Source: Kiritimatiellia bacterium
Lineage (GTDB): Bacteria > Verrucomicrobiota > Kiritimatiellia > RFP12 > UBA1067
Length of the DNA: 39,651 nt
Direction: 5' to 3'
NCBI GenBank assembly: GCA_050949565.1
Contig: JBMNFY010000009.1
Span: forward strand, 1 to 39,651
Shown: positions 1-38,465 of the stretch, piece by piece
How positions within the stretch are numbered: position 1 is the first letter of the stretch
How the letters are laid out: each line of letters begins with the position of its first letter
Notes under the pieces: model-generated
Seen by the model: the letters and a program-made list of their open reading frames with translations, nothing else
Told to the model about the DNA's origin: nothing
Databases searched by the model: none
Translations under genes and position numbers: made by a program

Positions 1-1944
1 GTTCAGATCCTCCCAGACAAAGTCGCCGATGCTGTAGCCGGCCACGTTGATCGTGAAGGTGTACTCCGCACTGCGGTCTTCGCCGCCGTTGGCTCTGCCG
101 CCGTCATCCTGGAGATAGACCGTGACGGTGGCGATGCCGCTCATGTTCGGCGCGGGCGTATAGGTCAACGTGCCGTCGGCGGAGATGGCCGGCGGTACGG
201 AGAAGAGTGCGGCGTTGTTGTTCGTTACATGAAAGGTCAGCGTCTGCCCGCTTTCATTCGCCGGGCCTTTGCTGATGTTTGTGGCCCACGCGGGCACGGT
301 CTGTGCGCCCGCTCCCACCGTCAGATTCTGGTCAGCACCTCCCGTGAAGCCCGGCGCGTCGTTCACCGGCAGCACCGTCAGATACACCGTGGCGGTGTCC
401 GCGCGCCCGTTGAAGTTCGTGATCGTGTAGGTAAAGCTGTCGCTACCGTAGTAATCCGGCTCAGGTGTGTAGGTGTAGGAACCGTCGGCATTCAGTACAA
501 GCGTGCCGTGCGCGGGCTGGGTGTGGGCGACCACGGCGATGTCAAAGCCGTTCAGGTCGCTGTCGTTGTTCATCACTCCCGGCGCGGGACGGTCCCATCA
601 CACCTCCACCATTGAGACATTGTCATCGACCGCCGTAGGCGGCAACAGCGTGCGCACGATCGCTTCCCCCGGCACATTGTCGCTTGTGCTGAGGGTCGTG
701 TCGATGATCGTGCTTGTTCCACCCACGTAGGCCACCACACTGTTGGTCGTTACCCCCGCAATCATCGCCCGCGCCTGAAAGGTGAAGTCGACGGTACTGT
801 TGGCCGGAACATGCTCGGTCTCCGACCAGACCAGCCGCGTTCCGCTGATCGACGGATCAAGCATCGTCACCCCGTTCAACTGCGAACTGCCCGGTATGTA
901 CGCCATGTGCGGCGGCAGGGTATCGACAACACGGTCGATCGCCATATCGTTCGGCCCGCTGTTGGTGAAGCGCACGGTATAGGTCACGATCTCATTGGTA
1001 TAGGCCCGCGTGACGTTGGCCAGCTTGGCGAGTGTCGTGATATTGGTCGGCGACTGGATTGGCTGGAAAAGGCCATAGCCCGAAGTGCTCGGATGCGAAC
1101 TTTTATTATTCTGCGAGGCATAGGTCATCGGGCTGACCGGCGTGCTTTGCGCGGTCTCGACCAGCGCCCTGAACGTATAGTAGGCGGTATAGGTGATCTC
1201 GCCGTTGGACCACTGTACCACATCCGCCGGCAGTTGCAGATAGTCGGAGATCGTCTGTGTCTGACTGTTTTTATTCTTTAGCACCAGCGAGACGTCGCAA
1301 AGCTGGAAGGCCCCCGCGTTCCAGGTGCTGAAAACCGCCGGGCTGAAGTTGATCAGATCGCCCGTCTTTACGTTGCCCGCATCGCCTGTTACCTCCACCA
1401 ACACCGTGCCGCCGACCGTCGGCGGGTTCGGGCCGTAGGTCACGGTATAGACCTTGCTGGAGTTGTTTTCACCTGTCGTGGCCACAGTCAGGGAGAAGGT
1501 CTGGTTGGCGACCAGCGTACCGCCCTCTGGGTATCCTTCATACACTTTTACCGTGTGGCTCTGCGGCTGCGTGGTGACCGCCGAAGCGCCCAGATAAAAG
1601 TAGACGGTCTTGTACGCCCCCGGCGGAAGATCATCGACGTGGTACAACCCGTTGTCCCCGCCGGCCAGCGAGACGATATTGCCCGTGAAATCCTCCACTT
1701 GAACCCAGATGTTGGAGTACGGCACATCCGTGTCATTGCGAATGATGTACGAGACAAAACCGCATGAGAGCCCGTTCGGGATGTCCGTCTACAGAATCGC
1801 CCCAGAGGTCCGCGTGATCGTGATCGCCTCGGCCACCAAGGGTGCGCCGGCCAGCGCCAGCGCAAGAAACACGCACGCGCCCGCGCGGCGCAGCAAGCCG
1901 CTTCGAGAGACACGCGGATAAAAGCCGGAATCGATTGCCAACAT
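1..1944 (-). pseudogene. Large secreted/surface adhesin-like protein (signal peptide, DUF11-like domain, cadherin/Big_9-like repeats, start of SdrD-B-like domain); interrupted by in-frame TAG (1789-1791) and TGA (598-600); runs off window
   Basis: ORFs 1789..2007 and 598..1725 and the open frame 1..597 are all the same frame. ATG at 1944 has AAGAGGG upstream and a hydrophobic signal peptide. Motifs: 'VTYTVRFTNSGPN...VVDTLPPHMAYIPGS', 'PTAVDD...GVMNNDSD...HGTLVLNADGSYTYTP', 'SIGDFVWEDLN'. Confidence 0.75.
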
Positions 1945-2108
1945 ATTTCGCCCTCTTATCTGATGCTTGATATTTTTGGAGTTCGCTATTCCCTCCGTGT
2001 AGCGCAACGTCAGCAGACACCGACTTCACACTTCCACTCCTACTCCTGACGCGGCGCAAAACCGCCGCCCCGTCCGCCCCATGCACAAGGCGGTCACAAC
2101 GGGGGCAA

Positions 2109-2137
2109 ATTGTCCCCGAAAAGCCGAATCACGTCAA
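2109..2137 (-). promoter_or_regulatory. Putative sigma70 promoter of the adhesin gene
   Basis: TTGACG-17 nt-GACAAT on the minus strand, ~165 nt upstream of ATG 1944. Confidence 0.55.
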
Positions 2138-2164
2138 CCGTCTTGTGACCGGGAGGGGGACCGC

Positions 2165-2192
2165 GCAAGTGTCACTTGCCCGGCGGCGGCCA
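2165..2192. repeat. REP-like palindromic repeat, copy 1
   Basis: gcaagtgtcacttgcccggcggcggcca, identical to 3841-3868; core palindrome GCAAGTG-T-CACTTGC. Confidence 0.8.
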
Positions 2193-2330
2193 GCGTAAAC
2201 GGTGAGTTCCGGCCTACTTCCGTGGGACAGGCAATGACCGCTTTGGCGGTTTTGGGAGCGGGTGAATGACGATTGAGGTGATGACCAGTTTCACAGCACC
2301 CTAGGCGCTGTGAAGCGTGGTTTACAAGAC

Positions 2331-3605
2331 TCAACTCTTTTTAGGTTTGCGTAGGTTGTTGGCGAGAGCCGCGCGAACGGCGGCAGTATTGGGCCACTGC
2401 TGTTCCAGCGAGGCGTCGACGTCTAGTGCGATGAGGGTGGCGCGGTGGGTTCGGCGCAGGTCGCGTGCTCGGCGGACCCAAGCCCACGGCACGCCCGCCA
2501 GTACGCGCGCACAGGGGTAGCGTTCGGCCAGAAACGCTCTGGGCATAAAGATACGACTCAGTGCCAGTCGAGCGCGCCCAAACAAGCCGGCTTGGCGATA
2601 GCTGAGCGTCGTCGATTCTGCCCCACGTTCTGACCCGCGTGGCAAGTATGCGAGGGCGTGAATCGCGGCGTTACGCCAAAACGCGTCGATATACGGCACG
2701 TCTTTCGCCAGGGTAGCGGGCAGAGGCACGTCAAAGAGTTCCGCAGTGAAACGTAAAACGAACGGGATAGCCGTTCCAATTTGCCAGCGTGCGCCTGCGG
2801 CGGTGATTGCTTCGGGCGTGAGCGCATCGCCTCGCGTACGCATGAGCAGCGCGACATCCAGATAAGAACGTAGCGGAATTGCAAACAGATGGTGCAGCAT
2901 GCGGTGTACAAGGTGTGCGAGTTGGTCGGGAATTGACAAGGCGAAACAGGGAGAACCGTAAAGCCGTACTGGTTCGACATACCACCATATCGCTGCCATG
3001 TCCGCTTCTGGTGAGTCGGCCTCCAGCTTGCTGAACACGTCCCAGTGCATCTCTACGGTGTAAAGGTGCTGGGGGTGGCGGTAGCCTTGAGCGCAGGCAA
3101 AGCGGTTGCGCAGCGTGTCGGCGGTAGCGGTGTAGCCAAGTTGCAGCATCACGGCATGACTGCGGTCGCGCTGGTCGGCACGGATCAGTACATCGATATC
3201 GCTCATGCTCCGCAATGCCGGATTCGCGTACACCGACTCGGCAAGCCAAGCACCTTTCAGCATGACCAGATCCAGGCCAGCGCGTTCAAAGCCCGCCGCC
3301 AACTCGGCAAGTTGGCGATGCCGCAGTGTTGCGCGCTGTAGTTCCCGCAAGGCACGCATGCGCCACGCGCCCGGCACGCTGTCGGGCAGGGCGGACGACG
3401 TGGTGAAATGCTCGGGAAAATGGGCTGCCAGCCACGGGAAGAGAAAGGCGTCTACGCCTTGTTTGCACGCCGTACGATCGAGCAGCGGCCACAATGGCTC
3501 GTCTGTGTCGACCGACAGCGGCCGATCGTGCAGGGCGTCGCGTACGCATACGATCAGCATGCGAAGTCCAGTTAGATCTGACAGGGCGGTGGTTTCGGAA
3601 TCCAT
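2331..3605 (-). CDS. Nucleotidyltransferase family protein (NTP_transf_5-like)
   Basis: Motifs LKGAWL, Y..P..R.MSDIDVL, VEMHW; start uncertain (3605 or 3692). Confidence 0.8.
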   Translation of the reverse strand: MDSETTALSDLTGLRMLIVCVRDALHDRPLSVDTDEPLWPLLDRTACKQGVDAFLFPWLAAHFPEHFTTSSALPDSVPGAWRMRALRELQRATLRHRQLAELAAGFERAGLDLVMLKGAWLAESVYANPALRSMSDIDVLIRADQRDRSHAVMLQLGYTATADTLRNRFACAQGYRHPQHLYTVEMHWDVFSKLEADSPEADMAAIWWYVEPVRLYGSPCFALSIPDQLAHLVHRMLHHLFAIPLRSYLDVALLMRTRGDALTPEAITAAGARWQIGTAIPFVLRFTAELFDVPLPATLAKDVPYIDAFWRNAAIHALAYLPRGSERGAESTTLSYRQAGLFGRARLALSRIFMPRAFLAERYPCARVLAGVPWAWVRRARDLRRTHRATLIALDVDASLEQQWPNTAAVRAALANNLRKPKKS

Positions 3606-3840
3606 GATGTCAGTAATACCACGAGAGACGGTGCAGGGGCAAGTATCTACCGCACGTTTACTCTTGCCTTGTCCCCTCCCTTCCGTCATCATGTCCCCAT
3701 AACGGATTTCGGATGATGTTTATGCCGCATCCAATCCAGCCCAAAGGTTAACCATGAACAATAACGCCGCATCGCGTCTCTTGTCTTGCGTCTTTGCTCA
3801 GGTTCAGGTTTTCAGGATTCACTGCGAAGCGCCGGGAGGG

Positions 3841-3868
3841 GCAAGTGTCACTTGCCCGGCGGCGGCCA
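3841..3868. repeat. REP-like palindromic repeat, copy 2
   Basis: 28 bp identical to 2165-2192. Confidence 0.8.
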
Positions 3869-3933
3869 CGCCGCCACCCCGTAGAAACTCTCTGCGTCTC
3901 TGCGCCTCTGCGTTAAAAAAAGGAAACGGTGTC

Positions 3934-5079
3934 ATGTTGAAAAAGGAGTGGTTACACGGGGTTTGTTTCGGACTGATTTTTCTTTTCGCTTCACAACTCG
4001 GAGCTATTCCCCTGCAACGCATCGAAGAGCAGTCGTTCGGGAGCACGCCCGCAGGCGAAGAGGTGCAACTCTACACACTACGCAACGCACACGGCATGGT
4101 AGCGCGTGTCATAGGATACGGCGCGACGATCACCGAACTGCGCGTGCCCGACCGTGATGGAAGGTTCGCCAATGTCGTTATGGGCGCGGAGTCGCTCGAC
4201 ACATACCTCAAAGGTTTCAGTGCGGCGGCCTCAGTCATGGGACGCGTCGCCAATCGCATCGCGAACGCGCGCTTCACATTGGACGGCCGCGAGTTCCGCG
4301 TGACAGCCAATGCCGGCCAGCACCAGCTCCACGGCGGTCGCAACGGGTTTGCGCGCAAGGTGTGGCGCGGCGAGGTATTGCCCGCCATCCCGAACGCTAC
4401 CGCCGTGCGCTTCAGCCTGCGCAGTCCAGACGGCGACGAGGGGTTCCCCGGCACGCTCAATGTGACCGTCACCTACACGTTGAACGATGACAACGAGTTG
4501 CGCATCGACTATACGGCGACTACCGACAAACCCACGCCGGTCAACTTCACCAACCACGCTTACTTCAATCTTGCAGGCGAAGGGGACGTGTGGGACCACC
4601 AGGTTTGGATCGACGCCGATCGTATCACGGCAGCCGATGCCGAACTGATCCCCACCGGTGAGTACGCGCCCGTCACGGGAACTCCGCTGGATTTCAGCGC
4701 GCCGACCGCGATCGGCGCGCGGATTGAGGCGCTTACGTCAACCAAAGGGTACGACCACAACTACGTTTTGCGCAACGGTGGTCAGAGCTTCGCATGCGCG
4801 GCGTGGTGCTACGAACCGCGCAGCGGCCGTCTGATGCACGTCTACACCGACCAGCCCGGCATGCAGCTCTACACGGGAAAACGTTACTTCCGCAACGGCA
4901 AGCCAGTAGCGGCAACGCCGGATCAAAAGCACAACACCGTCTGCTTTGAGACGCAGCACTTTCCGGATGCCGTCAATCATCCGAACTTCCCGTCGGTCAT
5001 CCTGCGTCCCGGCCAGACCTTCCGTCGTGCGACATCCTACCGGTTTTCCGTGGCCAACGCGCTACCGGCGGTGCCCTGA
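3934..5079 (+). CDS. galM: Aldose 1-epimerase (galactose mutarotase) with signal peptide
   Basis: GRVANRIANA, LHGG, GFPG, NFTNHAYFNL, GYDHNY, TDQPGMQLYTG, CFETQHFPD; frame stays open upstream to ATG 3754. Confidence 0.92.
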   Translation: MLKKEWLHGVCFGLIFLFASQLGAIPLQRIEEQSFGSTPAGEEVQLYTLRNAHGMVARVIGYGATITELRVPDRDGRFANVVMGAESLDTYLKGFSAAASVMGRVANRIANARFTLDGREFRVTANAGQHQLHGGRNGFARKVWRGEVLPAIPNATAVRFSLRSPDGDEGFPGTLNVTVTYTLNDDNELRIDYTATTDKPTPVNFTNHAYFNLAGEGDVWDHQVWIDADRITAADAELIPTGEYAPVTGTPLDFSAPTAIGARIEALTSTKGYDHNYVLRNGGQSFACAAWCYEPRSGRLMHVYTDQPGMQLYTGKRYFRNGKPVAATPDQKHNTVCFETQHFPDAVNHPNFPSVILRPGQTFRRATSYRFSVANALPAVP

Positions 5080-5254
5080 TCCGTGCCGCACCCGCAAGCA
5101 AGAGGTTTTGTAAGAGCCTCGGTTAGTGACAGAGACGCGCGAAGATCATGAGTTTCTGGAGAAAAGAGGCACGGCGAGTCGGGACTGCGGGCGTCCTCGC
5201 CCGCAGCAGCGTGTCATGAAAAAGGCCGACGCATGTATCTGTTCAAGCAGGAGA

Positions 5255-5432
5255 AGAACGCAGAACGCTCAACGTCGAACACAGAACGCAGAAGTGGAGA
5301 ACATGAAACGTTCAGTGTCAGAATTGCGGAACGTTGGGAAGATGAGAGCAACGCAGAACCTCTGCGCCTCCGCACCCCTGTGAGAAAAACCGAACAATAA
5401 AACTTGGGACCAGAAACCTGAAACCCAAAGCC
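5255..5432. repeat. Direct repeat A, copy 1 (heptamer/octamer composite)
   Basis: 5255-5398 matches 6273-6416 with about 8 mismatches in 144 bp; looser tail follows. Confidence 0.9.
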
Positions 5433-5442
5433 GCCCCGTTAC

Positions 5443-6126
5443 TCACTCCTCACTTTCCTCAGCCCTCCAGGCGCGGATGTAGCGGCGGCGCACCTTGGCA
5501 ATGAACCCCTCGGCGGCGTCCGGTTTCGCCTCCGGCGCGGGTGCAGCTTTTTTCTTCTGCTTTGGCTTCGGCGCGGCGACACGCGCATGCAACTCTTTCA
5601 GGCTGTCGATTCGGAGCTCCGCGGCACAGATCGTGCCCTCGCGCATCCTCCTTAATTCCGGGAAGTCGTCGAGCGGATAGAGGAGCCCGTTGTTGAAGTG
5701 ATAGATAGTCCGGTTGACAATCGGCAGAAGCCGCCGCTCCTTGATGCCCGGACCGAACCTGAATACGCGCACCTTCACCTTCGCGGCCTCGGGATGACGG
5801 TAACGCGCCTCTTCGGGCATCGCGGCGCCTTTCGCGACGAAGAGTGCGTTCATGCCCTTTTTAAGATAGTTGCGGTTGACGCACATCTTCCACGAGATCC
5901 CGAGCGAACCGCGCACTGTCACCAGCGCATACCTTTCATTCGCCTTCGGAATCTCCTTGTAGGCGACCACCCTGACGATACACGCGAGCGGCAGCGCCGT
6001 CGGCATCGTCTCGCCCTCGCCACGCCGCAGCTTGTCGAGGTACGCAATCGCGATAACATCTTCCGGCGTCCTCTCCGGCTTCTTCGGCCACTCCGGCTTC
6101 TCAGGTCTCTCGTTTTCTTTATTCAT
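5443..6126 (-). CDS. Hypothetical protein resembling the N-terminal OB-fold of DRB0094-type RNA ligases, without a ligase domain
   Basis: 227-aa ORF under promoter copy 1; 'LACIVRVVAYKEIPKANERYALVTV..W.MCV...LKKGMNALFV...AAMP' and 'NGLLYPLDDF...EGTICAAELRI' patterns. Confidence 0.55.
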   Translation of the reverse strand: MNKENERPEKPEWPKKPERTPEDVIAIAYLDKLRRGEGETMPTALPLACIVRVVAYKEIPKANERYALVTVRGSLGISWKMCVNRNYLKKGMNALFVAKGAAMPEEARYRHPEAAKVKVRVFRFGPGIKERRLLPIVNRTIYHFNNGLLYPLDDFPELRRMREGTICAAELRIDSLKELHARVAAPKPKQKKKAAPAPEAKPDAAEGFIAKVRRRYIRAWRAEESEE

Positions 6127-6143
6127 CTATTCCACCGCCATCA

Positions 6144-6224
6144 TCCACAAGGCACTCAACAACGCACCGACACCCACGATGGCACCCATTATGCGAGGGA
6201 GAGTGAAAACCGTCAACCCGCAAA
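6144..6224 (-). promoter_or_regulatory. Repeated promoter + hairpin leader, copy 1
   Basis: TTGACG(6216-6211)-17-CATAAT(6193-6188), then 7 nt and ATCGTGGG hairpin; aligns ungapped with 10170-10250 and 10667-10748. Confidence 0.85.
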
Positions 6225-6272
6225 ACTCGCGCATCAGTTTTGTGGGCGGCGTTCACGATGCCCTCTGCGATG

Positions 6273-6455
6273 AGAACGCAGAACGCCCAACGTCGAACAC
6301 TGAACGCAGAAGTGGAGAACATGAAACGCCCAACGTCAGAATTGCGGAGCGTTGGGAAGGTGAGAGCAACGCAGAACCTCTGCGCCTCCGCACCCCTGTG
6401 AGAAAAACCGAACAATGCCTGAAACTTGGAACCAGCAAACCTGAAATCCCAAGGC
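6273..6455. repeat. Direct repeat A, copy 2
   Basis: Matches 5255-5432; lies just past the mcrC stop. Confidence 0.9.
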
Positions 6456-6467
6456 CCCCACTATTCG

Positions 6468-7943
6468 CTATTCACTTTTTTCATTCACTTGACTGACCAG
6501 CCAGCCAAGACCCTCCCGAGCCTTGGCGTCCATCTCCGTTGCAAATTCTTTAAAGTCAGAATGTCCTTGGGGAACGGGTAGCCCCAGTTCAAAAAGACAG
6601 CGTTTGCAGTCAGCATTTTCCGCTGGCTGGTGGGCGCGCGCCCCTAAGAAACACCGTGTTTTTTTGTAAATCCCGTTTTCGTCTTTAACATCGCTTTTAT
6701 CATCGCCGTCGTACGGGAAGAGCAGAGAGGCGCGATTACATTCATACCGGTACATGTAGGTGGTGACTTGATAATAATCTTCCCGCGATGCCTCTTCACC
6801 GCGTTTGTCAATGCGCTTGTACTTTGCATCAGCCACGAAATGCGCGGTTAGAACGTTTTTGCCGTCAGGTTCTTTCACCTTGATGAAGTCTGGATATATT
6901 TCCTGACCATCTTTAAAAAGCGTATCTCTTCCCTTGCGTTCTTTGTTGCACGGATGTTTTATTTCTTCGCCAATCTCACGGAACATGACATCCAGATACT
7001 CCTCCCAGAGCCACGCTCCGTCGAAGATCAGGCCGTAGACCTTGCCCTTTTCCCTGCCGTACGTCAGTTTGTCGTGCCGCAGGATACGCAGGCAGAGTTG
7101 CTGGAGACGACGCCACTCCGTGAAGTAGGGATGCGTCACGGGATGTGTCAGGTTGGCATTGATGACCCGACCGCGCTCATTGCGGTTGTAACCCAGAGTG
7201 TGAAATTCAATCTGGTTGACGGCATCCGACATCTCGGTACTGTTGCGCAGAGTGCTCCGCCCCCATGGATGCGCCTTGATATGTTCGATCGTATGACGCA
7301 CGAGTTGTGTCACGGCGTTGTCGTACCGATACTCTCGCGTGTTGTAGGCGATCTTGCCCGCGAACGGAATATTCCGCTTTAAGTGCCGCGCGACATCAAT
7401 CGCACCCTTCACGTTGGCGTCGTTATGTTTGATCCGTCTGTACTCTTTGTAGAGTCCCTGACGCATCGCCGGCATCAGGTGTGACGGAAAGAGATAGAGC
7501 AGAAAATCATAGATGTTATCGCGAAGATCTGTCCGCACTTGGAAATTAACGATGTTCAACCTAAACACCTTGTGCAGCATGTGGTGCAGAAAGAAGTCAT
7601 GAGCATCGTCTTTGGCAAAGCGCGAGGTGATGGTCAGTTGGGTGTTGTTCCGCCCGACAAACCCCATGACGTTGCCCGTGGCAAGCGACCAAGCTCCGGC
7701 TTCTTGAGGGTGCAACGAAAAGAGTCGCAATGTTTCGGCTTTGTCTTCTCCGCTGCGGTACGTGTCTAAACCGTAAGGGAACGCCAACAACGACGGATTA
7801 TCACCGCGCAGCTCCGCTATCGTTTGCACGGCGATGGGAGCCAAGTCGTCGACCGCTTGGGGAGCCAACTGCAGCGACTTGGCCGTGGTATTATCGGTTG
7901 TCACCAGATGAGTTGTGCCGTCATCAAGAGTGCGCCCCGCCAT
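6468..7943 (-). CDS. mcrC: McrC-like PD-(D/E)xK nuclease subunit of a modification-dependent restriction system
   Basis: TGNVMGFVG, RQGLYKEY, KGAIDVARH, LWEEYL, YPDF...DAKYK...DYYQ..TYM; overlaps the mcrB stop. Confidence 0.88.
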   Translation of the reverse strand: MAGRTLDDGTTHLVTTDNTTAKSLQLAPQAVDDLAPIAVQTIAELRGDNPSLLAFPYGLDTYRSGEDKAETLRLFSLHPQEAGAWSLATGNVMGFVGRNNTQLTITSRFAKDDAHDFFLHHMLHKVFRLNIVNFQVRTDLRDNIYDFLLYLFPSHLMPAMRQGLYKEYRRIKHNDANVKGAIDVARHLKRNIPFAGKIAYNTREYRYDNAVTQLVRHTIEHIKAHPWGRSTLRNSTEMSDAVNQIEFHTLGYNRNERGRVINANLTHPVTHPYFTEWRRLQQLCLRILRHDKLTYGREKGKVYGLIFDGAWLWEEYLDVMFREIGEEIKHPCNKERKGRDTLFKDGQEIYPDFIKVKEPDGKNVLTAHFVADAKYKRIDKRGEEASREDYYQVTTYMYRYECNRASLLFPYDGDDKSDVKDENGIYKKTRCFLGARAHQPAENADCKRCLFELGLPVPQGHSDFKEFATEMDAKAREGLGWLVSQVNEKSE

Positions 7944-9312
7944 ACGCCTTCCTCAATTCTCTTAGCTTCGCTTCCGCATCCGGCATCCCGCGCAGGTACT
8001 CACGCAACAACGGTTCAATGTGATACTGCCAGAGAGCGTTGAAATCTCCGTCGTACTTCTTCAATTTCAGGAAATATGCGCCGCCGATGTGATACGAGGA
8101 GTTAAGGCCGTCGGCTTCAGAAATTGCTTTGTTCAGTGCCGCCATCGTTTGCTTCACCTTGTCATCCAGCCCCATGTTCTCGGCGCTCTCTGCGGCAGTA
8201 ATCTCCTCCCAGACAAACCTTCGCCGCATTGCGAAGTCGAAACTCTCGACGCTCCGGTCGATGTCGTTCATCGTGCCGATGATGTAGACGTTCTCTGGGA
8301 CATAAAACTTCTTCTCATCATCAGACCCCGCTCGCATACTGACATACTGAGTCAACACTTTACCGGCGACACCCCGGTACCCCGGGTCAATAGAGAAAAA
8401 CAACTCGCCGAAAATCTTCGAAATCTCACCTCGGTTAATCTCATCAATGACGAAAACGAACTTCTCGCTGGTCTCGTCATATTTTCCATTATCCTTGTAC
8501 TTACACTCTTTACGAGCCGCCTCGCAAAACTTCTTGAAAGTACCATCGGTAAGCTCAAACCCGATATTCCCGTTCACGTCTGGTTGCTTCGGACGCAACC
8601 CCTCCACGAAATCGGTATAGTCATAGGAAGGGTGGAACTGGACGAAAGCGAACTGTTTGTCGAACTTCTCCTTTTCACTCTCCTCAAAGTTGTTTTCGTC
8701 CTTCGGCTCCCAATCGTCGCCAAAGATCAGCTTCTGCGCAAGTTGTCTGGCCAGATAAGTCTTCCCTGTCCCGGGCGCACCGGTCAGGATGAGATTGTAA
8801 TTGTTCCCTAACAGAGTGACCAACGCCTTCATACGGGCATTTTCTTCGTTCATTTTTACAGCCTCCTCCACAACGGTTTTCAGTTTCGACGCTATTTTCT
8901 GATCTTTCGGATTCTTTGACGGATGTAGTTCGTATATTGAAGGTATTCTTCTCGCACCTCCGAAAGCGGCCCCTTCAAAATCGAGTCCAAGCCCGGCAAG
9001 AGCGTCTTGGCCTATCATGCCTTTTAGCTTGCGCGCATAAGCATGATCCGGAACTCCATCCTTCTCCGGGGTCACCGCCTTGACATCAGAGTCAACAATA
9101 CCTGCGAAGTAGAGTTCCTTGCTCTTGTTTTCACCGCGCGCGATGAGAACGATATCCCCTCGCTTTACCGTATGATGAAAATCGCGGCCTCGCGCCGCAT
9201 GTGTCTCACCAGGCCCATAACCCATGTAAACGCAGTGATTCTTGCGAATGGCATCTATCCAAGCCCCGCTCCCTTCGTTTCTTACATTTGGCGAAACGAC
9301 CCAAAACCGCAT
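7924..9312 (-). CDS. mcrB: McrB-like AAA+ GTPase with N-terminal putative EVE/PUA-like DNA-reader domain
   Basis: Walker A GAPGTGKT, VQFHPSYDYTDFVEG, Walker B VIDEINRG, McrB signature GTMNDIDRS, AMRRRF; alternative start 9321. Confidence 0.92.
   Translation of the reverse strand: MRFWVVSPNVRNEGSGAWIDAIRKNHCVYMGYGPGETHAARGRDFHHTVKRGDIVLIARGENKSKELYFAGIVDSDVKAVTPEKDGVPDHAYARKLKGMIGQDALAGLGLDFEGAAFGGARRIPSIYELHPSKNPKDQKIASKLKTVVEEAVKMNEENARMKALVTLLGNNYNLILTGAPGTGKTYLARQLAQKLIFGDDWEPKDENNFEESEKEKFDKQFAFVQFHPSYDYTDFVEGLRPKQPDVNGNIGFELTDGTFKKFCEAARKECKYKDNGKYDETSEKFVFVIDEINRGEISKIFGELFFSIDPGYRGVAGKVLTQYVSMRAGSDDEKKFYVPENVYIIGTMNDIDRSVESFDFAMRRRFVWEEITAAESAENMGLDDKVKQTMAALNKAISEADGLNSSYHIGGAYFLKLKKYDGDFNALWQYHIEPLLREYLRGMPDAEAKLRELRKAYGGAHS
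8929..9296. repeat. 368-bp near-identical duplication, copy in mcrB 5' end
   Basis: Matches 9731-10098 (offset 802) with 2 mismatches seen (9153/9955, 9209/10011). Confidence 0.95.
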
Positions 9313-9338
9313 CTCAGGCATCCCTTCTCATATCGTCA

Positions 9339-9548
9339 TCAACCATCATTAGCATCCTTTCCTGCACCGTCTTGCGACGATTGTTCGTCGTTCCGCTTTT
9401 TTGTCGGTGTCTGAGACAGCCAAGCATACATAGGCCCAGAAAAACCGCATCCCCAGCAAACACTGTCGGGATAATCGTAGGGCTCATACCCGTTGGCCCG
9501 TATCCAATCGGAACACTGTTGGCTTCCGCATGGCTTTGTGCTCGTCAT
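9339..9548 (-). CDS. Small Cys4 protein (69 aa), possible zinc-binding
   Basis: GGAGG RBS then ATG; MTSTKPCGSQQC...VCWGC; co-oriented and immediately upstream of mcrB. Confidence 0.55.
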   Translation of the reverse strand: MTSTKPCGSQQCSDWIRANGYEPYDYPDSVCWGCGFSGPMYAWLSQTPTKKRNDEQSSQDGAGKDANDG

Positions 9549-9574
9549 CGCTGTCACGCCTCCCTGAACACCCC

Positions 9575-9619
9575 AAACCAGAAACAATGGATCTGACGGG
9601 AGTTTTCCGCCAGATCCAT
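9575..9619 (-). terminator. Strong hairpin (terminator/attenuator-like) after the stand-alone reader gene
   Basis: ATGGATCTGGCGG-AAAACTC-CCGTCAGATCCAT followed by TGTTTCTGGTTT. Confidence 0.6.
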
Positions 9620-9637
9620 CAAGTGTGTCGTTTTTAA

Positions 9638-10114
9638 CTACTGAGCCCCATCTTCTTTTGCAGTCTTCCCTAAAGCGGTCTTCAGTTTCGTGGCTATTTC
9701 TTGATCCTTCGGGTTCTTTGAAGGACGCAATTCGTATATTGAAGGTATTCTTCTCGCACCTCCGAAAGCGGCCCCTTCAAAATCGAGTCCAAGCCCGGCA
9801 AGAGCGTCTTGGCCTATCATGCCTTTTAGCTTGCGCGCATAAGCATGATCCGGAACTCCATCCTTCTCCGGGGTCACCGCCTTGACATCAGAGTCAACAA
9901 TACCTGCGAAGTAGAGTTCCTTGCTCTTGTTTTCACCGCGCGCGATGAGAACGACATCCCCTCGCTTTACCGTATGATGAAAATCGCGGCCTCGCGCCGC
10001 ATGTGTCTCATCAGGCCCATAACCCATGTAAACGCAGTGATTCTTGCGAATGGCATCTATCCAAGCCCCGCTCCCTTCGTTTCTTACATTTGGCGAAATC
10101 ACCCAGAATCTCAT
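9638..10114 (-). CDS. Stand-alone copy of the McrB N-terminal domain (158 aa)
   Basis: AAGGAG RBS, own stop codon; protein nearly identical to residues 1-~150 of McrB. Confidence 0.85.
   Translation of the reverse strand: MRFWVISPNVRNEGSGAWIDAIRKNHCVYMGYGPDETHAARGRDFHHTVKRGDVVLIARGENKSKELYFAGIVDSDVKAVTPEKDGVPDHAYARKLKGMIGQDALAGLGLDFEGAAFGGARRIPSIYELRPSKNPKDQEIATKLKTALGKTAKEDGAQ
9731..10098. repeat. 368-bp near-identical duplication, copy in stand-alone gene
   Basis: See 8929-9296. Confidence 0.95.
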
Positions 10115-10169
10115 TCCAGTCTCCTTTCTCATGTTGCACAGTTTGCTATGACAGGTCTCCTGTCATCAC

Positions 10170-10250
10170 TCCACAGGGCCACCGGCAACACACCGATGCC
10201 CACGATGGTGCTCATTATGCGGGGACGGATGAAACTCGTCAACCCGCAAA
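10170..10250 (-). promoter_or_regulatory. Repeated promoter + hairpin leader, copy 2
   Basis: TTGACG(10242-10237)-17-CATAAT(10219-10214); hairpin GGGCATCGGT-GTGTT-GCCGGTGGCCC; extra hairpin ATGACAGG-AGA-CCTGTCAT downstream. Confidence 0.85.
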
Positions 10251-10284
10251 GCGCAAAACGTTAACGCCGTAACCGAGTCTCGCG

Positions 10285-10611
10285 TCAGCAGTAGCGGTTG
10301 CTAATTTCTGCGATACCTGCGGTGCTGACTTCGTAAACGACGATCCTACTGCCGTCTTCGAACACCATCAAACGACCGTTCGCGTGTTTGAAGTTTCCGA
10401 CGCGGCTGCGATAGAGCCGTTCAATTTCATTGTCGGTCTCGGCGTTCACAATCACATACCGGTCGTCATCCCCAAAAACGAGGAAGTTCTTCCCGAACCC
10501 GCACAGGTCGCCGTCTCCATAGCGACTGGCGTAAATCCGGTTCGCCTCCCGGCTGTTCTCGTCATACACGGTATAAGCGTTACCGTCAAAAGCCACATCC
10601 GATATAGTCAT
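10285..10611 (-). CDS. Hypothetical protein (108 aa, three weak beta-rich repeats)
   Basis: GAGGGAG RBS, downstream of promoter copy 3; repeats YTVYDENSREANRIY / YVIVNAETDNEIERLY / IVVYEVSTAGIAEISNRY. Confidence 0.75.
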   Translation of the reverse strand: MTISDVAFDGNAYTVYDENSREANRIYASRYGDGDLCGFGKNFLVFGDDDRYVIVNAETDNEIERLYRSRVGNFKHANGRLMVFEDGSRIVVYEVSTAGIAEISNRYC

Positions 10612-10666
10612 GGTCGTCGCTCTCCCTCTCGTTTCGTTCGCCTTTCACTGGCATTTCTTCTTCTGA

Positions 10667-10748
10667 TCCTCAGGGTGACCGGAAAAACCCCGGCTCCCAT
10701 GATCGTCGTCATTATGCGGAGACAGATGAAACCTGTCAATCCTGCAAA
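10667..10748 (-). promoter_or_regulatory. Repeated promoter + hairpin leader, copy 3
   Basis: TTGACA(10739-10734)-17-CATAAT(10716-10711); hairpin GGGAGCCGGG-GTTTT-TCCGGTCACCC. Confidence 0.85.
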
Positions 10749-10766
10749 AAACGCGCGCAGACGTAT

Positions 10767-10815
10767 GGGGCACGGGTTTTCCAACCCGTGGCACGGACAG
10801 GAATGTCCGTGCTCC
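10767..10815. repeat. REP-like doublet
   Basis: cacgggtt-ttcc-aacccgtg followed by gcacggaca-ggaa-tgtccgtgc. Confidence 0.7.
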
Positions 10816-10844
10816 TTTCCCTGCCCATAACTTGGGTTTTTTCG

Positions 10845-10960
10845 CTCCTAACTCCTAAATCCTAAATCCCAAATCCGCGCGTAGCGCGGTTACGCGGTGC
10901 TCGGATTTAGGAGTTTTTTCACTTCTGCGTTCTGCGTTGGACGTTCGGCGTTCGGCGTTC
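10845..10960. repeat. Heptamer tandem arrays
   Basis: (aa[c/a]tcct)n with inverted copy at 10903-10915; 10921-10960 is the reverse complement of the gaacgca heptamer block of repeat A. Confidence 0.75.
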
Positions 10961-10987
10961 ACAAAACGGCGGCGTGAAACGCCGCCC

Positions 10988-11077
10988 GGACGAGCAGACG
11001 CTCGTCCCTCCCAGTTCCTACTTGAACGTTCGGCGTTCCAATCGATCCCGATCCCGATAGCGATACCGATTTGGATG
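10988..11077. repeat. Direct repeat B, copy 1
   Basis: ggacgagcagacgctcgtcc palindrome + gttcctac.tgaacgtt.ggcgtt + cgatNN hexamers; matches 13311-13396. Confidence 0.8.
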
Positions 11078-11108
11078 AAGCCTGTTTCCCAAAACCTTCT
11101 TTTGCGGC

Positions 11109-11714
11109 TTATTGGGGGGTTGCCCCTGTGCCTGACCCTTTCACGCCTTTAGGAGGGGCTTCGCGAACTGCAGGATATTTACTCTTCATTTCCGCCTCTT
11201 TGCGATCAAGGGCTGTTTCTGATATCCACTGTTTCTCTCCATCGATCTCAATGAACTCGGAACGGTTGACTAGCACCACCCTGGCAGACGTATATCGATA
11301 TTTCTCGACCATTCGAAAGCCGCCTTGGCCGGGATGTCGCCACCGGACAACGATCTCCGCTCCTGCATCATCCGGAAGTACATCAACTCCCTCAAAGATG
11401 GGTGTAACACCTTTGACATTGGTGTTCGCCTCACGGAGAAAGCGAACGTTGCCTTTTTCATCACATTCTGCAAAATCAATAAGATCCCCCTCGCTTCCTG
11501 ATCGACAATACTTGAGAACATACAGATCTTTTAGCCCTGATATCTTTACAGTGGATTCTCCTGAGAACTTGTAAACCCCCTCCCACGTGCGATGTGTTCT
11601 GGAAGGAAGCGCCCTGCGCTCAAGAACATTCGTCGCTCCATGGGCCGACAAAACGCCTGAAAGAAGGGATGCAAACATAGATATAAGAGTACTCAACAGC
11701 TTGATCGTTTTCAT
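11109..11714 (-). CDS. Hypothetical secreted protein (201 aa)
   Basis: Signal-peptide-like MKTIKLLSTLISMFASLLSGVLSAHG; visibly lower GC than the core genes. Confidence 0.75.
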   Translation of the reverse strand: MKTIKLLSTLISMFASLLSGVLSAHGATNVLERRALPSRTHRTWEGVYKFSGESTVKISGLKDLYVLKYCRSGSEGDLIDFAECDEKGNVRFLREANTNVKGVTPIFEGVDVLPDDAGAEIVVRWRHPGQGGFRMVEKYRYTSARVVLVNRSEFIEIDGEKQWISETALDRKEAEMKSKYPAVREAPPKGVKGSGTGATPQ

Positions 11715-11746
11715 GAATCGTTTCAAATCACCTGTCCCCTAGTTGT

Positions 11747-13150
11747 CTATTTCGTGTTTTCAGGGCTACCCTCGATGCCCCACGACTCTGGCGCGACCTT
11801 TCCCTGTTTGGCGTTTTCGACCTCGCGGAGCAAGGCATGAATGTCGATTATATGGTTTTCATCATCGTAGGGCTGGCCGTCATGCCGGCGAAAGAGGTCG
11901 AGCAATTCCAAGGCCTTTTTCCGCGTATAGTCGTCGCGACTCAGGAGACCCTCGCGCAGGATGGGGTAACCGATCAGCCAGCCCATATCCTCGGCGAAGA
12001 TTTTAGCGTAGACGATACGAACCCAGAGCGAGTAGCGGAAATGCTTCAGTATTTCAGGCGCATCTTTACGTGGCTGTGACTCCGCGACCGACGAGCATTT
12101 AGCGGTTTGTAGGTACCTGTTCCGGATTTGGCAGGCGACCAGTTCGTTCGTGGCCGCAGACTCGCGGAGCAGGGCCCGGATGTCGACCCGTCTGCCCGAG
12201 CCGTCGAAAGGCTTGCCGTCGAACGCCCTGAACCCGTCGAGCAGGGTCATGGCCTGATCATAGTGATCGCCATCATAACTTCTCCACAGCAGGCCTTCGC
12301 GCAGGACCGGGTAGCCGCCGGGGTCTCCCTTTTCAACACAATCCTTGGCGATCGACAGTCTCGCGGACAGGTCGCATTCGGGGTCAAACATCTCTTCCCG
12401 CCGGAAGCGTTCGGCAGCGTCCTTGTCGTAACGCTCCAGAACTTTTCTACAACGAATTTTTATGGACCAGTCGTTGTTAGTCTGATAACAGCAGATCAAA
12501 GCGTCAGTCAACTCGGGGAACCGATGATGATCGATATCAAGCCTTGCCATGGCGCAAAGGATTGAGTCTAACTCATCCCCTTCAGCCGTATCCCGGACCG
12601 CACTCTTCAGCTTGCCGGTCCGCGCCGACATGTCGCGCACAAACATGCGGATGTCCGGGGCCGCTTTGGACTGCTGCAGGACCTTGGCGCAAAGGTGCCG
12701 GACAACCCAATCCTCGCTCTGCTTGTAGCACCGGACGATCTCGTTCGTCAATTCGGGAAAGGCGTGGCCCGACTCGATAAGAACGGTAAGCGTGACATAT
12801 ACGACCGCACTTGCCTCACTGAATCTTACAAGACCTTGCCGTCCCCGCATGTCTTTCGGCACGCGCTTTGTCATGAAGCTTTCAAGCGCTTTCGGCGAGC
12901 GCAGACTTTCAACGAGGTTGGTGTAGTCGGCTTGCTTGCCTGTCACGATTTTGTACGAGGTTGCGCCATAGTCGTAACGGTACTCATGCAATTTGTTCTC
13001 GAGAAGCGCCGATTGCCGCTCCGCTGCTTCGCGCTCACTTTGTTTGAGGGATACGGGCTGAACATTCTCGCCAGCCCTGCAATTGCATACGGAAGCAACG
13101 ACAGAGGCCGTCAATAAGACAGGAATCAAGAATCTTTCCGTAATTGTCAT
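11747..13150 (-). CDS. Hypothetical secreted helical-repeat (HEAT-like) protein (467 aa)
   Basis: Signal-like N-terminus from ATG 13150; two pairs of internal repeats. Confidence 0.75.
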   Translation of the reverse strand: MTITERFLIPVLLTASVVASVCNCRAGENVQPVSLKQSEREAAERQSALLENKLHEYRYDYGATSYKIVTGKQADYTNLVESLRSPKALESFMTKRVPKDMRGRQGLVRFSEASAVVYVTLTVLIESGHAFPELTNEIVRCYKQSEDWVVRHLCAKVLQQSKAAPDIRMFVRDMSARTGKLKSAVRDTAEGDELDSILCAMARLDIDHHRFPELTDALICCYQTNNDWSIKIRCRKVLERYDKDAAERFRREEMFDPECDLSARLSIAKDCVEKGDPGGYPVLREGLLWRSYDGDHYDQAMTLLDGFRAFDGKPFDGSGRRVDIRALLRESAATNELVACQIRNRYLQTAKCSSVAESQPRKDAPEILKHFRYSLWVRIVYAKIFAEDMGWLIGYPILREGLLSRDDYTRKKALELLDLFRRHDGQPYDDENHIIDIHALLREVENAKQGKVAPESWGIEGSPENTK

Positions 13151-13269
13151 GGCGTGAACCCTTTTGGCTTTTAAATACCCGTCCCTTAGTTGTCTCTCGC
13201 CATCACACATCTCCTTTTCGTCTGCATTCTAGCATCTTGTGTCGTCAACAGCTACTTGAATGTTAGTCG

Positions 13270-13438
13270 CCAACGTCAGACTTGCGAAGCGTTGGAAAGG
13301 TGAGAGCAACGGACGAGCAGACGCTCGTCCCGGTTCCTACGTGAACGTTGGGCGTTTTGATCGATACCGATAGCGATACCGACAGCGATTTTGATGCGTT
13401 GCGTGTCCACAATGTCCACGACGTCCACAATGTCCACA
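13270..13438. repeat. Composite repeat: partial repeat A (13270-13311), repeat B copy 2 (13311-13396), nonamer array gtccacaat (13405-13438)
   Basis: Direct sequence comparison with 6329-6371 and 10988-11077. Confidence 0.8.
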
Positions 13439-36791: not shown

Positions 36792-38465
36792 ATGAACACC
36801 ACCGTACCCTGTCTCTCGTCTCACGTCCTTCACGAAATGCGTGAGACCTCTGCGTCTCTGTGCCTCTGCGTTAAAAAAAATGCTCAACTGTCAATGCTGG
36901 CGCTCGCTTGCGCGGGCCTGTTCGCGATAACCGCCGGCGCCGCCCCTGCCGGGGTGACGGCGACTCCGAAGGTAGCGCCGTTATCGCCGACACCGGGTGC
37001 CTACCTCACCTTCTCCAGCGCAACCGCCTTCACGATCAAACCGCAGCAAGAATCGTGGAACGGGACGCTGTACTGGTCCACCGACACGACGTTCTGGTCC
37101 GTCTTCACCGCCAGCGGCGCCACCGCCGCGCCCGACAACGGTGCCGGGGAGTACAAGCTCCACCTCTGCGGATCAGGAAACACGTACATCACCGGCAGTT
37201 CCACATCATCTCCCTGGCTCATCACCGCCGGCAACCCGGTCGACTGCTCCGGCAACATCGAGACGCTGCTCGACCATGCGACGGTGGCCGACGGCGAGCA
37301 TCCGACAATGGCGTCCTGCTGCTTCGCGTACCTCTTCAGGGACTGCGCGGCGCTCGCCAGTACGCCGTCGCTCCCGGCCACGAACCTGGCCAACCACTGC
37401 TACTACAACCTGTTCAACGGCTGCACGAGCCTGACGAGCGCGCCGGCACTGCCCGCCACGATACTGCCCGAAAGGTGCTATAATGGCATGTTCAACGGCT
37501 GCACGAGCCTGGCGCAGGCACCGGTATTGCGCGCCACGAATCTGGCTGAATCCTGCTACGGCTACATGTTCTACAAATGCTCCGGCCTGACGAGCGCGCC
37601 GGCACTGCCCGCCACCAATCTGGCCGACTACTGCTACAATCGCATGTTCTACGACTGCACCGGCCTGACGACGGCGCCGACGCTGCCGGCGACGACGCTG
37701 GCCGAAAGGTGCTACGAGTACATGTTCCGCGGTTGCACGAAGCTGACGCAAGCCCCGGCGCTCCCGGCCACCAATCTGGCCGACTACTGTTACGCCAACA
37801 TGTTCAACCGATGCACGGGACTGACCCGCGCACCGGCGCTACCGGCCACTAATCTGGCCGAAAGGTGCTACAACGGCATGTTCACCTCCTGCACAGGCCT
37901 GACGAACACGCCGGCGCTGCCCGCCACCACGCTGGCGCCCGACTGCTACTCCTACATGTTCCAAAGCTGCACAGGGCTGACGAGATTGCCGGATCTGCCA
38001 GCGACGAATCTGACTGACTCCTGCTACCGCTACATGTTCTACAAATGCACGGGCATCGAGCTGAACGCCGAAGGCCCCGGCATGGCGTGGAAGATCCCGG
38101 CCGACGCCGTGGCGGCAACAGATTGGAACCTCAGCATGTTCGCCGACACGAGCGGGACCTTCAAAGGTGCCCCAGTGATCGGCACCACGTACTATCTCGC
38201 GTCAGGCGCTCCCGACGCGCCGACCTTCGCCACGGACGGCACGGGGTTCGTCATCGGCGACAACGCGACCACCATCAAGATCGTCAACGCCGAAAGCGGC
38301 ATCTGGTACACGGTCTATAAGGTGGACGATCTCACCCAGACAAACTGGACGAAGATCGGCGACAGCATCAAAGCGACAGGCAGCGACGTCATCTTCACGA
38401 TACCCCGCGATCCGACGGTGCCCCGCCGCTTCTTCAAGGTGGTGGCCAGCTTCACAGCGCCCTAG
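36792..38465 (+). CDS. Secreted leucine-rich-repeat (BspA-like) surface protein, ~10 x 26-aa repeats
   Basis: Repeat CY..MF..CT.LT.APALPAT.LA; signal peptide MLALACAGLFAITAGA (alternative start 36894); C-terminal '...LTQTNW...RRFFKVV'. Confidence 0.85.
   Translation: MNTTVPCLSSHVLHEMRETSASLCLCVKKNAQLSMLALACAGLFAITAGAAPAGVTATPKVAPLSPTPGAYLTFSSATAFTIKPQQESWNGTLYWSTDTTFWSVFTASGATAAPDNGAGEYKLHLCGSGNTYITGSSTSSPWLITAGNPVDCSGNIETLLDHATVADGEHPTMASCCFAYLFRDCAALASTPSLPATNLANHCYYNLFNGCTSLTSAPALPATILPERCYNGMFNGCTSLAQAPVLRATNLAESCYGYMFYKCSGLTSAPALPATNLADYCYNRMFYDCTGLTTAPTLPATTLAERCYEYMFRGCTKLTQAPALPATNLADYCYANMFNRCTGLTRAPALPATNLAERCYNGMFTSCTGLTNTPALPATTLAPDCYSYMFQSCTGLTRLPDLPATNLTDSCYRYMFYKCTGIELNAEGPGMAWKIPADAVAATDWNLSMFADTSGTFKGAPVIGTTYYLASGAPDAPTFATDGTGFVIGDNATTIKIVNAESGIWYTVYKVDDLTQTNWTKIGDSIKATGSDVIFTIPRDPTVPRRFFKVVASFTAP

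Follow-up and report, generated by a model that had tools for sequence, protein, structure and literature searches.

Promoter and stem-loop modules ahead of accessory genes in a Kiritimatiellia bacterium as probable solo ends of an IS4-family insertion sequence

Complete outward promoters are present in the termini of insertion sequences (IS), those of the IS4 family included, and activate adjacent genes; in IS10, the promoter pOUT lies within 100 bp of the end and yields an antisense stem-loop RNA, and transcripts can continue into adjoining genes (excerpted text of PMC9330008). On a larger scale, putative mobile promoters have been described as very similar upstream regions that precede unrelated genes, identified by 80% or higher identity across 50 nt or more in the interval from -150 to -50 relative to the start codon; some of these are shared between genera and 210 are known insertion sequences (Matus-Garcia, Nijveen, van Passel 2012, as presented in PMC3575422). 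The available text of the latter commentary names no case from Kiritimatiellia, and the literature that was searched, supplements not covered, contains no description of the element reported here or of Kiritimatiellia promoters. Here we analyze a stretch of 39,651 nucleotides from a Kiritimatiellia bacterium (contig JBMNFY010000009.1 of assembly GCA_050949565.1, denoted contig C9 of genome G000; hereinafter, the window), which contains three copies of a promoter followed by a hairpin leader (modules A, B, and C), each in front of a different gene. These modules are probably diverged solo ends of an IS4-family element, which provide promoters and a 5' stem-loop leader to three accessory cassettes.

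The first-pass annotation described three minus-strand repeats of approximately 81 nt (A, 6224-6144; B, 10250-10170; C, 10748-10667) that align without gaps from the -35 element onward, and the coordinates, a repeat search of the window and a MAFFT alignment all agree with this description. In the repeat search, A, B, and C form one 76-nt repeat family with 75-76% identity to the reference copy; A and B are 77% identical over 81 nt, and the alignment of the three copies is gap-free from the -35 element through the end of the hairpin. The -35 hexamer is TTGACG in A and B and TTGACA in C, and in all three copies it is followed by a 17-nt spacer and the -10 hexamer CATAAT. A 29-nt degenerate promoter pattern matches at A, B, and C only (0.00 matches expected from 100 dinucleotide shuffles), and the same three sites are the best (10-11 of 12 matches) among the six sigma-70-like sites in the region 5000-11800, for which shuffled sequences give a mean of 3.6. 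A hairpin of -14 to -19 kcal/mol is predicted 3' of each promoter. A covariance model produces exactly three matches within the window at E <= 0.001, with scores of 47.5-59.3 bits to which A, B, and C themselves contribute, the model having been built partly from them. The three modules are the following.

6136..6224, minus strand: module A; -35 to -10 at 6216-6188, predicted +1 at about 6180, hairpin leader 6183-6136; promoter 10/12; model score 52.7 bits; aligned to IS ends.

10161..10250, minus strand: module B; -35 to -10 at 10242-10214, predicted +1 at about 10206, hairpin leader 10209-10161; model score 59.3 bits; heads the mcrBC operon.

10659..10748, minus strand: module C; -35 to -10 at 10739-10711, predicted +1 at about 10703, hairpin leader 10706-10659; promoter 11/12; model score 47.5 bits.

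The copies diverge 3' of the module into different open reading frames (ORFs), and the notion of a portable promoter with a structured leader ahead of unrelated genes is borne out.

The module is not confined to the window. The covariance model (R1), which was built from ten leaders, produced 10 strong matches in the same genome (E <= 4.8e-8; the next best match has E 0.158). These matches were counted as eight loci because contigs C12 and C16 repeat the first 6.4 kb of the window: C12:1-6338 and C16:1-6472 duplicate window positions 1-6474 at 99.2% and 99.95% identity, respectively, and break in an intergenic repeat. This duplication is strain redundancy in a metagenome-assembled genome, and module A is one locus rather than three. 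Across the family, matches were detected in 31 of the 151 genomes and 13 of the 27 genera, with up to 20-22 matches per genome; in a phylum-wide sample, 3 of 151 genomes contained matches, all inside the order. The canonical form of the module is strongly conserved, and the window copies are divergent members. The promoter is conserved along with the leader: among the 28 loci with at least 67 nt of upstream sequence, CATAAT is present in 27 and TTGAC in 24, at a fixed distance. Many of the matches sit at contig ends, with the contig always continuing downstream of the motif, a pattern typical of a collapsed repeat that has the motif as its final 50 nt.

The nature of this repeat is apparent from the sequence upstream of the promoter. 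Twelve of the 28 loci, and 3 of the 5 loci of the nearly closed genome G029, have a divergent gene that begins approximately 85 nt upstream of the -35 element. Its product is full-length (424-430 aa) in 5 of the 11 loci examined; among the other six, three ORF calls ended in another frame and three lacked a long ORF (one at a contig end and one truncated by a stop codon). All three of the divergent proteins tested contain DDE_Tnp_1 (E down to 1.9e-31) and DUF4372, and a search for relatives yielded 1788 at E <= 1e-20, mostly on contigs of 1.5-2 kb and in some cases named IS4 family transposase at the source. The genome that contains the window has a single full transposase copy, on contig C7 (94% identity to the query), and a fragment on contig C17, with no other matches. 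The complete element on C7 (C7:154332-155896) is 1565 bp long, carries 17-bp terminal inverted repeats (16/17 identical) at 154332 and 155896, and is flanked on both sides by an identical 9-bp direct repeat. Further copies are likewise bounded on both sides by exact or near-exact terminal repeats (in two cases, no right end was found), and a 9-bp target duplication accompanies three of the seven complete copies, the one on C7 included.

Given the inverted repeats and the 9-bp duplications, the 3' arm of the leader stem together with the tail corresponds to the terminal repeat, and the sharp 3' boundary of the module is the IS terminus; given these boundaries, the promoter of the module is the outward promoter of the transposase-proximal end. 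Judged by sequence, then, the canonical module is an IS4-family element's transposase-proximal end, which reads outward. The first-pass annotation proposed a candidate novel system, either a cassette-capture array or a co-regulated regulon with an undescribed cis-regulatory RNA, and had named in advance a match to an IS end as evidence to the contrary; such a match, with inverted repeats and 9-bp duplications, is what we found. The element is a previously unnamed member of the IS4 family that is widespread in this order of Kiritimatiellia. Approximately 50-90 nt inside its transposase-proximal end lies an outward, near-consensus sigma-70-type promoter, consisting of TTGAC, a 16-19-nt spacer with a poly-C run, and CATAAT. 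The predicted outward start is about 50 nt and the transposase start codon about 190 nt from the terminus. The distal end of the IS also folds on its outward strand, with the terminal repeat pairing with an internal complement. The poly-C run between the -35 and -10 elements varies from about 7 to 11 C among the copies (e.g., loci L061, L094, and L106; positions 6188-6216 in the window), along with spacers of 16-19 nt, and could be a slippage-prone tract that switches promoter strength.

Many copies of this end occur without the rest of the element: 16 of the 28 loci lack a transposase, as do the loci H, P, Q, and R in the same genome and the window modules A, B, and C. An inward-facing second terminal repeat upstream was not found in any of 20 solo loci, which rules out the interpretation of solo modules as miniature inverted-repeat (two-ended) elements. 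The inner break points of the solo loci vary from about -90 to inside the promoter, and the -35 element is lost in 4 of the 28 loci; such variation fits erosion from the transposase side with the promoter mostly retained. The alignment of modules A, B, and C with the IS ends starts at about -20 and stops at the terminus; their hexamers are intact and the hairpin is kept, with a degenerate terminal repeat. Because of the sharp boundary at the IS terminus, we infer that the solo ends derive from the IS and not the reverse. Further remnants resembling the terminal repeat are scattered in the genome, and contig C9 contains no such site at up to 3 mismatches. A loosened promoter search in the same genome returned further promoters of similar build, some with a related hairpin. 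At G000:C13:~29050 and C17:1972141, paralogous genes have the same promoter build (T-run, C-run, CATAAT) with a longer, different leader that lacks the hairpin; promoter-only relatives of the module thus appear to exist. A solo end from another genus (locus L093, G056:C4) is identical to module H (locus L041, G000:C17:751443-751492), including the flanks as shown, which reflects either a recent transfer or a binning mix.

The genes located downstream of the modules are diverse. Pfam matches were obtained for 14 of 20 downstream proteins, all of different kinds, with glycosidases, oxidoreductases, surface repeats, a hydrogenase, a peptidase, a LacI-type regulator and mcrBC among the genes encountered. 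The intact IS copies at loci L069, L078, and L095 lie 1-3 nt ahead of the start codons of exported enzymes, and solo ends are mostly found 0-100 nt ahead of genes that have a ribosome-binding site and encode a signal peptide. The gene that solo end H faces, for an integrase, runs in the opposite direction, so that no gene is headed by H.

A scan for the window variant, which demanded a G after CATAAT along with six further bases and is uninformative on the canonical family, gave matches in 3 of 41 relatives, on 3 stretches of genome contigs and 16 metagenome stretches. Variants of the window type were seen in the congeneric Kiritimatiellia genome G004, in one other genus (G018) and in metagenome stretches; these copies include a further cargo context, E, and mosaics that combine B's promoter with A's leader, and C's promoter with B's leader. 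Metagenome locus L014:2997-3078 bears a distant resemblance (39 bits): its promoter spacing is the same and its hairpin similar, with CTG at the 'start' position, and it precedes a 397-aa ORF. Another metagenome match, L015, looks like a chance hit.

We propose the following scenario for the window. The IS would insert and subsequently lose its transposase side, with variable inner break points, leaving the promoter and the hairpin in front of the neighboring gene. The outward transcript would start about 50 nt inside the terminus, fold, and run through the terminal repeat into the flanking DNA. Most likely, A, B, and C would then provide the 227-aa gene, mcrBC and the 108-aa gene, respectively, with a constitutive promoter and a 5'-terminal stem-loop leader. 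In the intact IS, the hairpin RNA is perhaps akin to the stem-loop RNA produced from pOUT of IS10.

The hairpin is maintained in evolution. The first-pass annotation noted that the stems pair largely through G-U pairs that work only on the transcribed strand; the hairpin does pair on that strand, partly through G-U pairs, and covariation is present. In an alignment of 50 distinct sequences, 96.8% of the cells are paired, compared to 33-51% with the partner slid, and five pairs have changed on both sides; in 500 shuffles, the observed value was reached by 0/500 in three of the five measures and by 1/500 in the other two. For the 30 transposase-less copies alone, 95.3% of the cells are paired and six pairs have changed on both sides. 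The only two inner-stem differences between module A and its orthologue in G004 amount to one compensatory change from C-G to U-A. A search of Rfam gave no matches at gathering scores in the whole window, and none at E <= 1 in four loci with canonical and window-type modules. The hairpin may act at the RNA level, as a protective 5' stem-loop. It would begin 1-2 nt after the predicted +1; given that RppH requires at least two unpaired 5' nucleotides (excerpted text of PMC3997798), a stem-loop placed right at the 5' terminus should shield the mRNA.

The promoters of A, B, and C can be predicted from their sequences to fire, with +1 near 6180, 10206, and 10703, respectively. Of the 24 sequencing runs listed, 20 are recorded as RNA, and four were used, all as assembled contigs. 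The RNA contigs, which by their nature cannot show start, strand or level, cover the cargos and the promoter regions alike.

Several observations weigh against the derivation of A, B, and C from IS ends, or against parts of the scenario. There is no transposase near the window copies, the matches in the same genome being only those on C7 and C17, and the terminal repeat of A is only loosely recognizable, at approximately 12 of 19 positions in a manual count on the alignment. For these copies, we infer descent from this IS rather than from an unsampled sister element. As for the direction of descent, the IS could conceivably have acquired a host promoter-leader long ago. Four of the seven complete IS copies have unlike flanks and no target duplication. 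The RNA contigs of three runs extend past the predicted +1 of A and B by 29-66 nt on the upstream side; read-through or DNA carry-over is therefore indistinguishable from initiation. The hairpin is kept in the solo copies with compensatory changes, which a plain decaying remnant would not predict, and both covariation alignments were fitted to the structure of the model itself, which favors that structure. Finally, the window-type copies contain a small reading frame whose end coincides exactly with the start of the cargo, which is likewise not predicted for a decaying remnant.

A stronger version of the solo-end scenario is one that we consider possible but rather unlikely. Under this version, solo ends have been domesticated across the order as a standard expression header, and selection keeps the promoter and the 5' RNA hairpin after the loss of the transposase; dozens of unrelated genes, including secreted glycan-degrading enzymes, surface proteins and defense cassettes such as mcrBC, would share one 5' end and one post-transcriptional control point, with the living IS making the same RNA. 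The result would be a transposon-born regulon, possibly tuned by the length of the poly-C run.

A different interpretation of the same observations is a host cis-regulatory RNA, that is, a lineage-specific leader bound by a common factor, with the IS having merely captured one copy; this we regard as improbable. The covariation in solo copies, the retention of the module across 13 genera, the lack of an Rfam match, and the position of most of the 16 transposase-less loci 0-100 nt ahead of real genes with signal peptides and ribosome-binding sites are all compatible with it. However, the 3' 17 nt of the leader are found, inverted, at both ends of the 1565-bp element with its 9-bp duplications and thus are a transposase recognition end, and the solo copies end exactly at the IS terminus. 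Furthermore, the downstream genes are functionally mixed and solo end H heads none, so the coherent regulon under a dedicated new cis-regulatory RNA that the first-pass annotation envisaged is not supported. The candidates for the common factor do not help this interpretation either. CsrA, considered for binding the two GGA-containing motifs, was not found in the genome, which is 92% complete. A NusG paralogue of 173 aa (G000:C17:788209-788727), located beside an Lrp-type regulator and a divergent BamA-like gene, was considered as a reader of the tail and rejected: it is present in 96 of the 151 genomes and 23 of the 27 genera, including genera without the motif, and is not specifically associated with it. 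Base pairing between the leader and 16S rRNA was also rejected, given that only scattered, G-U-tolerant matches of 10-11 nt were detected and that none of them involved the 3' end. The anti-Shine-Dalgarno sequence of the 16S rRNA is normal.

The small frame mentioned above could alternatively be a leaderless upstream ORF, with transcription beginning 3 nt ahead of an NTG codon that opens a frame for a hydrophobic peptide of 14-30 aa, the termination of which is coupled to initiation at the cargo. The codon 10 nt after the -10 element is GTG, GTG, ATG, TTG, and GTG in copies A, B, C, D, and E, respectively; the frame stops on the cargo start in A (TAG abutting the ATG) and in B, C, and E (ATGA); and C and E share a stretch of five residues through synonymous codons. 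Frame-keeping shuffles produce such a stop in 2% of the cases for A and in 32-37% for B, C, and E, before the one-in-three chance of the frame is taken into account. Nevertheless, about one in four of the 50 distinct sequences of the family have ATA, GTA or some other non-start triplet at this position, and loop indels of 1-2 nt preserve the hairpin while shifting the frame; because neither the start codon nor the frame is kept in the wider family, the small ORF is not a family feature. In addition, the cargos have Shine-Dalgarno-like sites of their own (with the normal anti-Shine-Dalgarno sequence in the 16S rRNA), the true start of cargo B may be the second ATG, and A and E are homologous around the start, so that the four cases are not independent. 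We therefore assign this possibility as little credence as the host RNA.

A cassette-capture array, another proposal of the first-pass annotation, in which a site-specific, integron-like system would insert promoterless genes behind a standard header, is hardly credible: although strains differ by whole cassettes at the locus and promoter and leader halves have recombined between copies (B with A, and C with B), none of the seven tyrosine-recombinase (PF00589) matches in the genome is on contig C9, no attC-like repeat was seen at the cassette ends (no attC model was run), the junctions of the variants fall in ordinary dispersed intergenic repeats, and the same header occurs singly, ahead of single genes, throughout this and other genomes.

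The solo-end interpretation accordingly applies to a locus with the following cargos and neighboring features.

5443..6126, minus strand: cargo of A, an ORF for a 227-aa protein; no family match.

6468..10132, minus strand: cargo of B, comprising a duplicate of the McrB N-terminal domain of 157/164 aa (9638-10132), McrB (7924-9321) and McrC (6468-7943); Pfam AAA_5 and McrBC, with McrB and McrC named in a second family/defense search; repeat 8854-9153/9656-9955.

10285..10611, minus strand: cargo of C, an ORF for a 108-aa protein; without a reliable family match.

6378..13300, no strand assigned: strain-variable islet in which modules B and C lie with their cargos; missing from metagenome contig L012; contig joints in four RNA runs.

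6273..6459, no strand assigned: intergenic repeat upstream of module A; second copy at 5255-5436 (90% identical), related pieces at 10879-11095 and 13270-13389.

Differing genes indeed lie 3' of each module, as annotated at first, in the reverse of the order that was given. McrBC is the sole cargo identified; the 227-aa protein (labeled OB-fold in the first-pass annotation) and the 108-aa protein had no reliable match in Pfam, NCBIfam or PADLOC. The mcrB region contains an 802-bp tandem duplication, with arms at 8854-9153 and 9656-9955 that are 94% identical, which yields a separate 157/164-aa copy of the (presumably DNA-reading) McrB N-terminal domain ahead of the full-length mcrB. The duplication is absent from strains L027 and L016 and from the RNA contig of run X5.

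The locus between the aldose epimerase gene and secY differs among strains. Contig L012 is 99.9% identical to the window up to position 6377 and lacks approximately 6378-13300; in L027, a module B' is located directly ahead of full-length mcrB-mcrC, without the 802-bp duplication and without cassette C; in L024, cassette E adjoins A; and contigs of the G004 type contain a decayed cassette C, which has lost 1 nt of the hairpin and 202 nt of the gene. The strains differ cassette by cassette at this locus. Contigs from the four RNA runs have corresponding joints that link 6257/6369 to 10986-10988, with short sides, and the junctions between strain variants fall in the dispersed intergenic repeats. 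The segment 10845-11100, upstream of module C, is a hairpin-rich repeat where the summed depth of the RNA contigs peaks for the whole stretch and where joints and loose ends are numerous in all four runs; it is probably a multi-copy repeat. Two other repeats were noted in the window: at 5119-5226, a dispersed repeat of about 107 nt with more than 40 copies at about 80% identity over the contigs of the genome, unrelated to the promoter module, and at 37303-38070, tandem 78-nt units in at least seven registers (66-71% identity), probably a repeat-domain coding region.

With the identification of the IS, an apparent new cis-regulatory RNA or cassette system becomes a case of promoter donation by a transposon, and an IS4-family element is defined in a phylum that has received little study. 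Recycled IS ends would account for many of the promoters that these bacteria use for accessory and secreted-enzyme genes. For genome annotation, a match to the motif should be taken to indicate an IS terminus or what is left of one, and a contig break there to indicate IS collapse. Intact IS, truncated IS, solo ends and promoter-only remnants together form a natural series in which the domestication of mobile promoters can be studied.

The mechanism itself, mobile DNA donating promoters, is already known; what is new is this element, its ends, its target duplication and its outward promoter. The closest described counterpart is pOUT/RNA-OUT of IS10, likewise an outward, constitutive promoter within approximately 100 bp of the transposase-proximal end whose stem-loop transcript can reach neighboring genes (excerpted text of PMC9330008). 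Unlike in IS10, the predicted start here lies about 50 nt, and the transposase start codon about 190 nt, from the terminus, so that antisense overlap with the transposase mRNA is not evident from the sequence; an overlap of the IS10 type would require an inward promoter within the last 50 nt, where none was identified. The promoter here, in contrast to that of IS10, is close to the consensus, and a similar terminal-repeat hairpin is present also at the distal end. The two elements belong to the same IS family by their Pfam domains and source names, and the target duplication of IS10 is 9 bp, as it is here. The outward promoters of ISAba1, ISEcp1, and IS1186, among others, are comparable in that a complete -35/-10 pair in the IS end reads through the inverted repeat into the flanking gene (excerpted text of PMC9330008); however, those are recent intact insertions, mostly before resistance genes, whereas here mostly old solo ends are found, in many genera. 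With respect to the survey of putative mobile promoters, the window copies are 75-77% alike and fall below the 80% identity threshold, whereas canonical copies would qualify. The hairpin resembles the 5' stem-loop stabilizers of the ompA and papA type in that it is predicted to lie within 1-2 nt of the 5' end, a likeness in which its function here is suggested by position only. Correia elements of Neisseria are similarly short, transposon-derived, promoter-bearing repeats that precede many genes (available text of PMC3575422), but they have both inverted repeats and are mobilizable, whereas none of the 20 solo modules analyzed here has a second terminal repeat.

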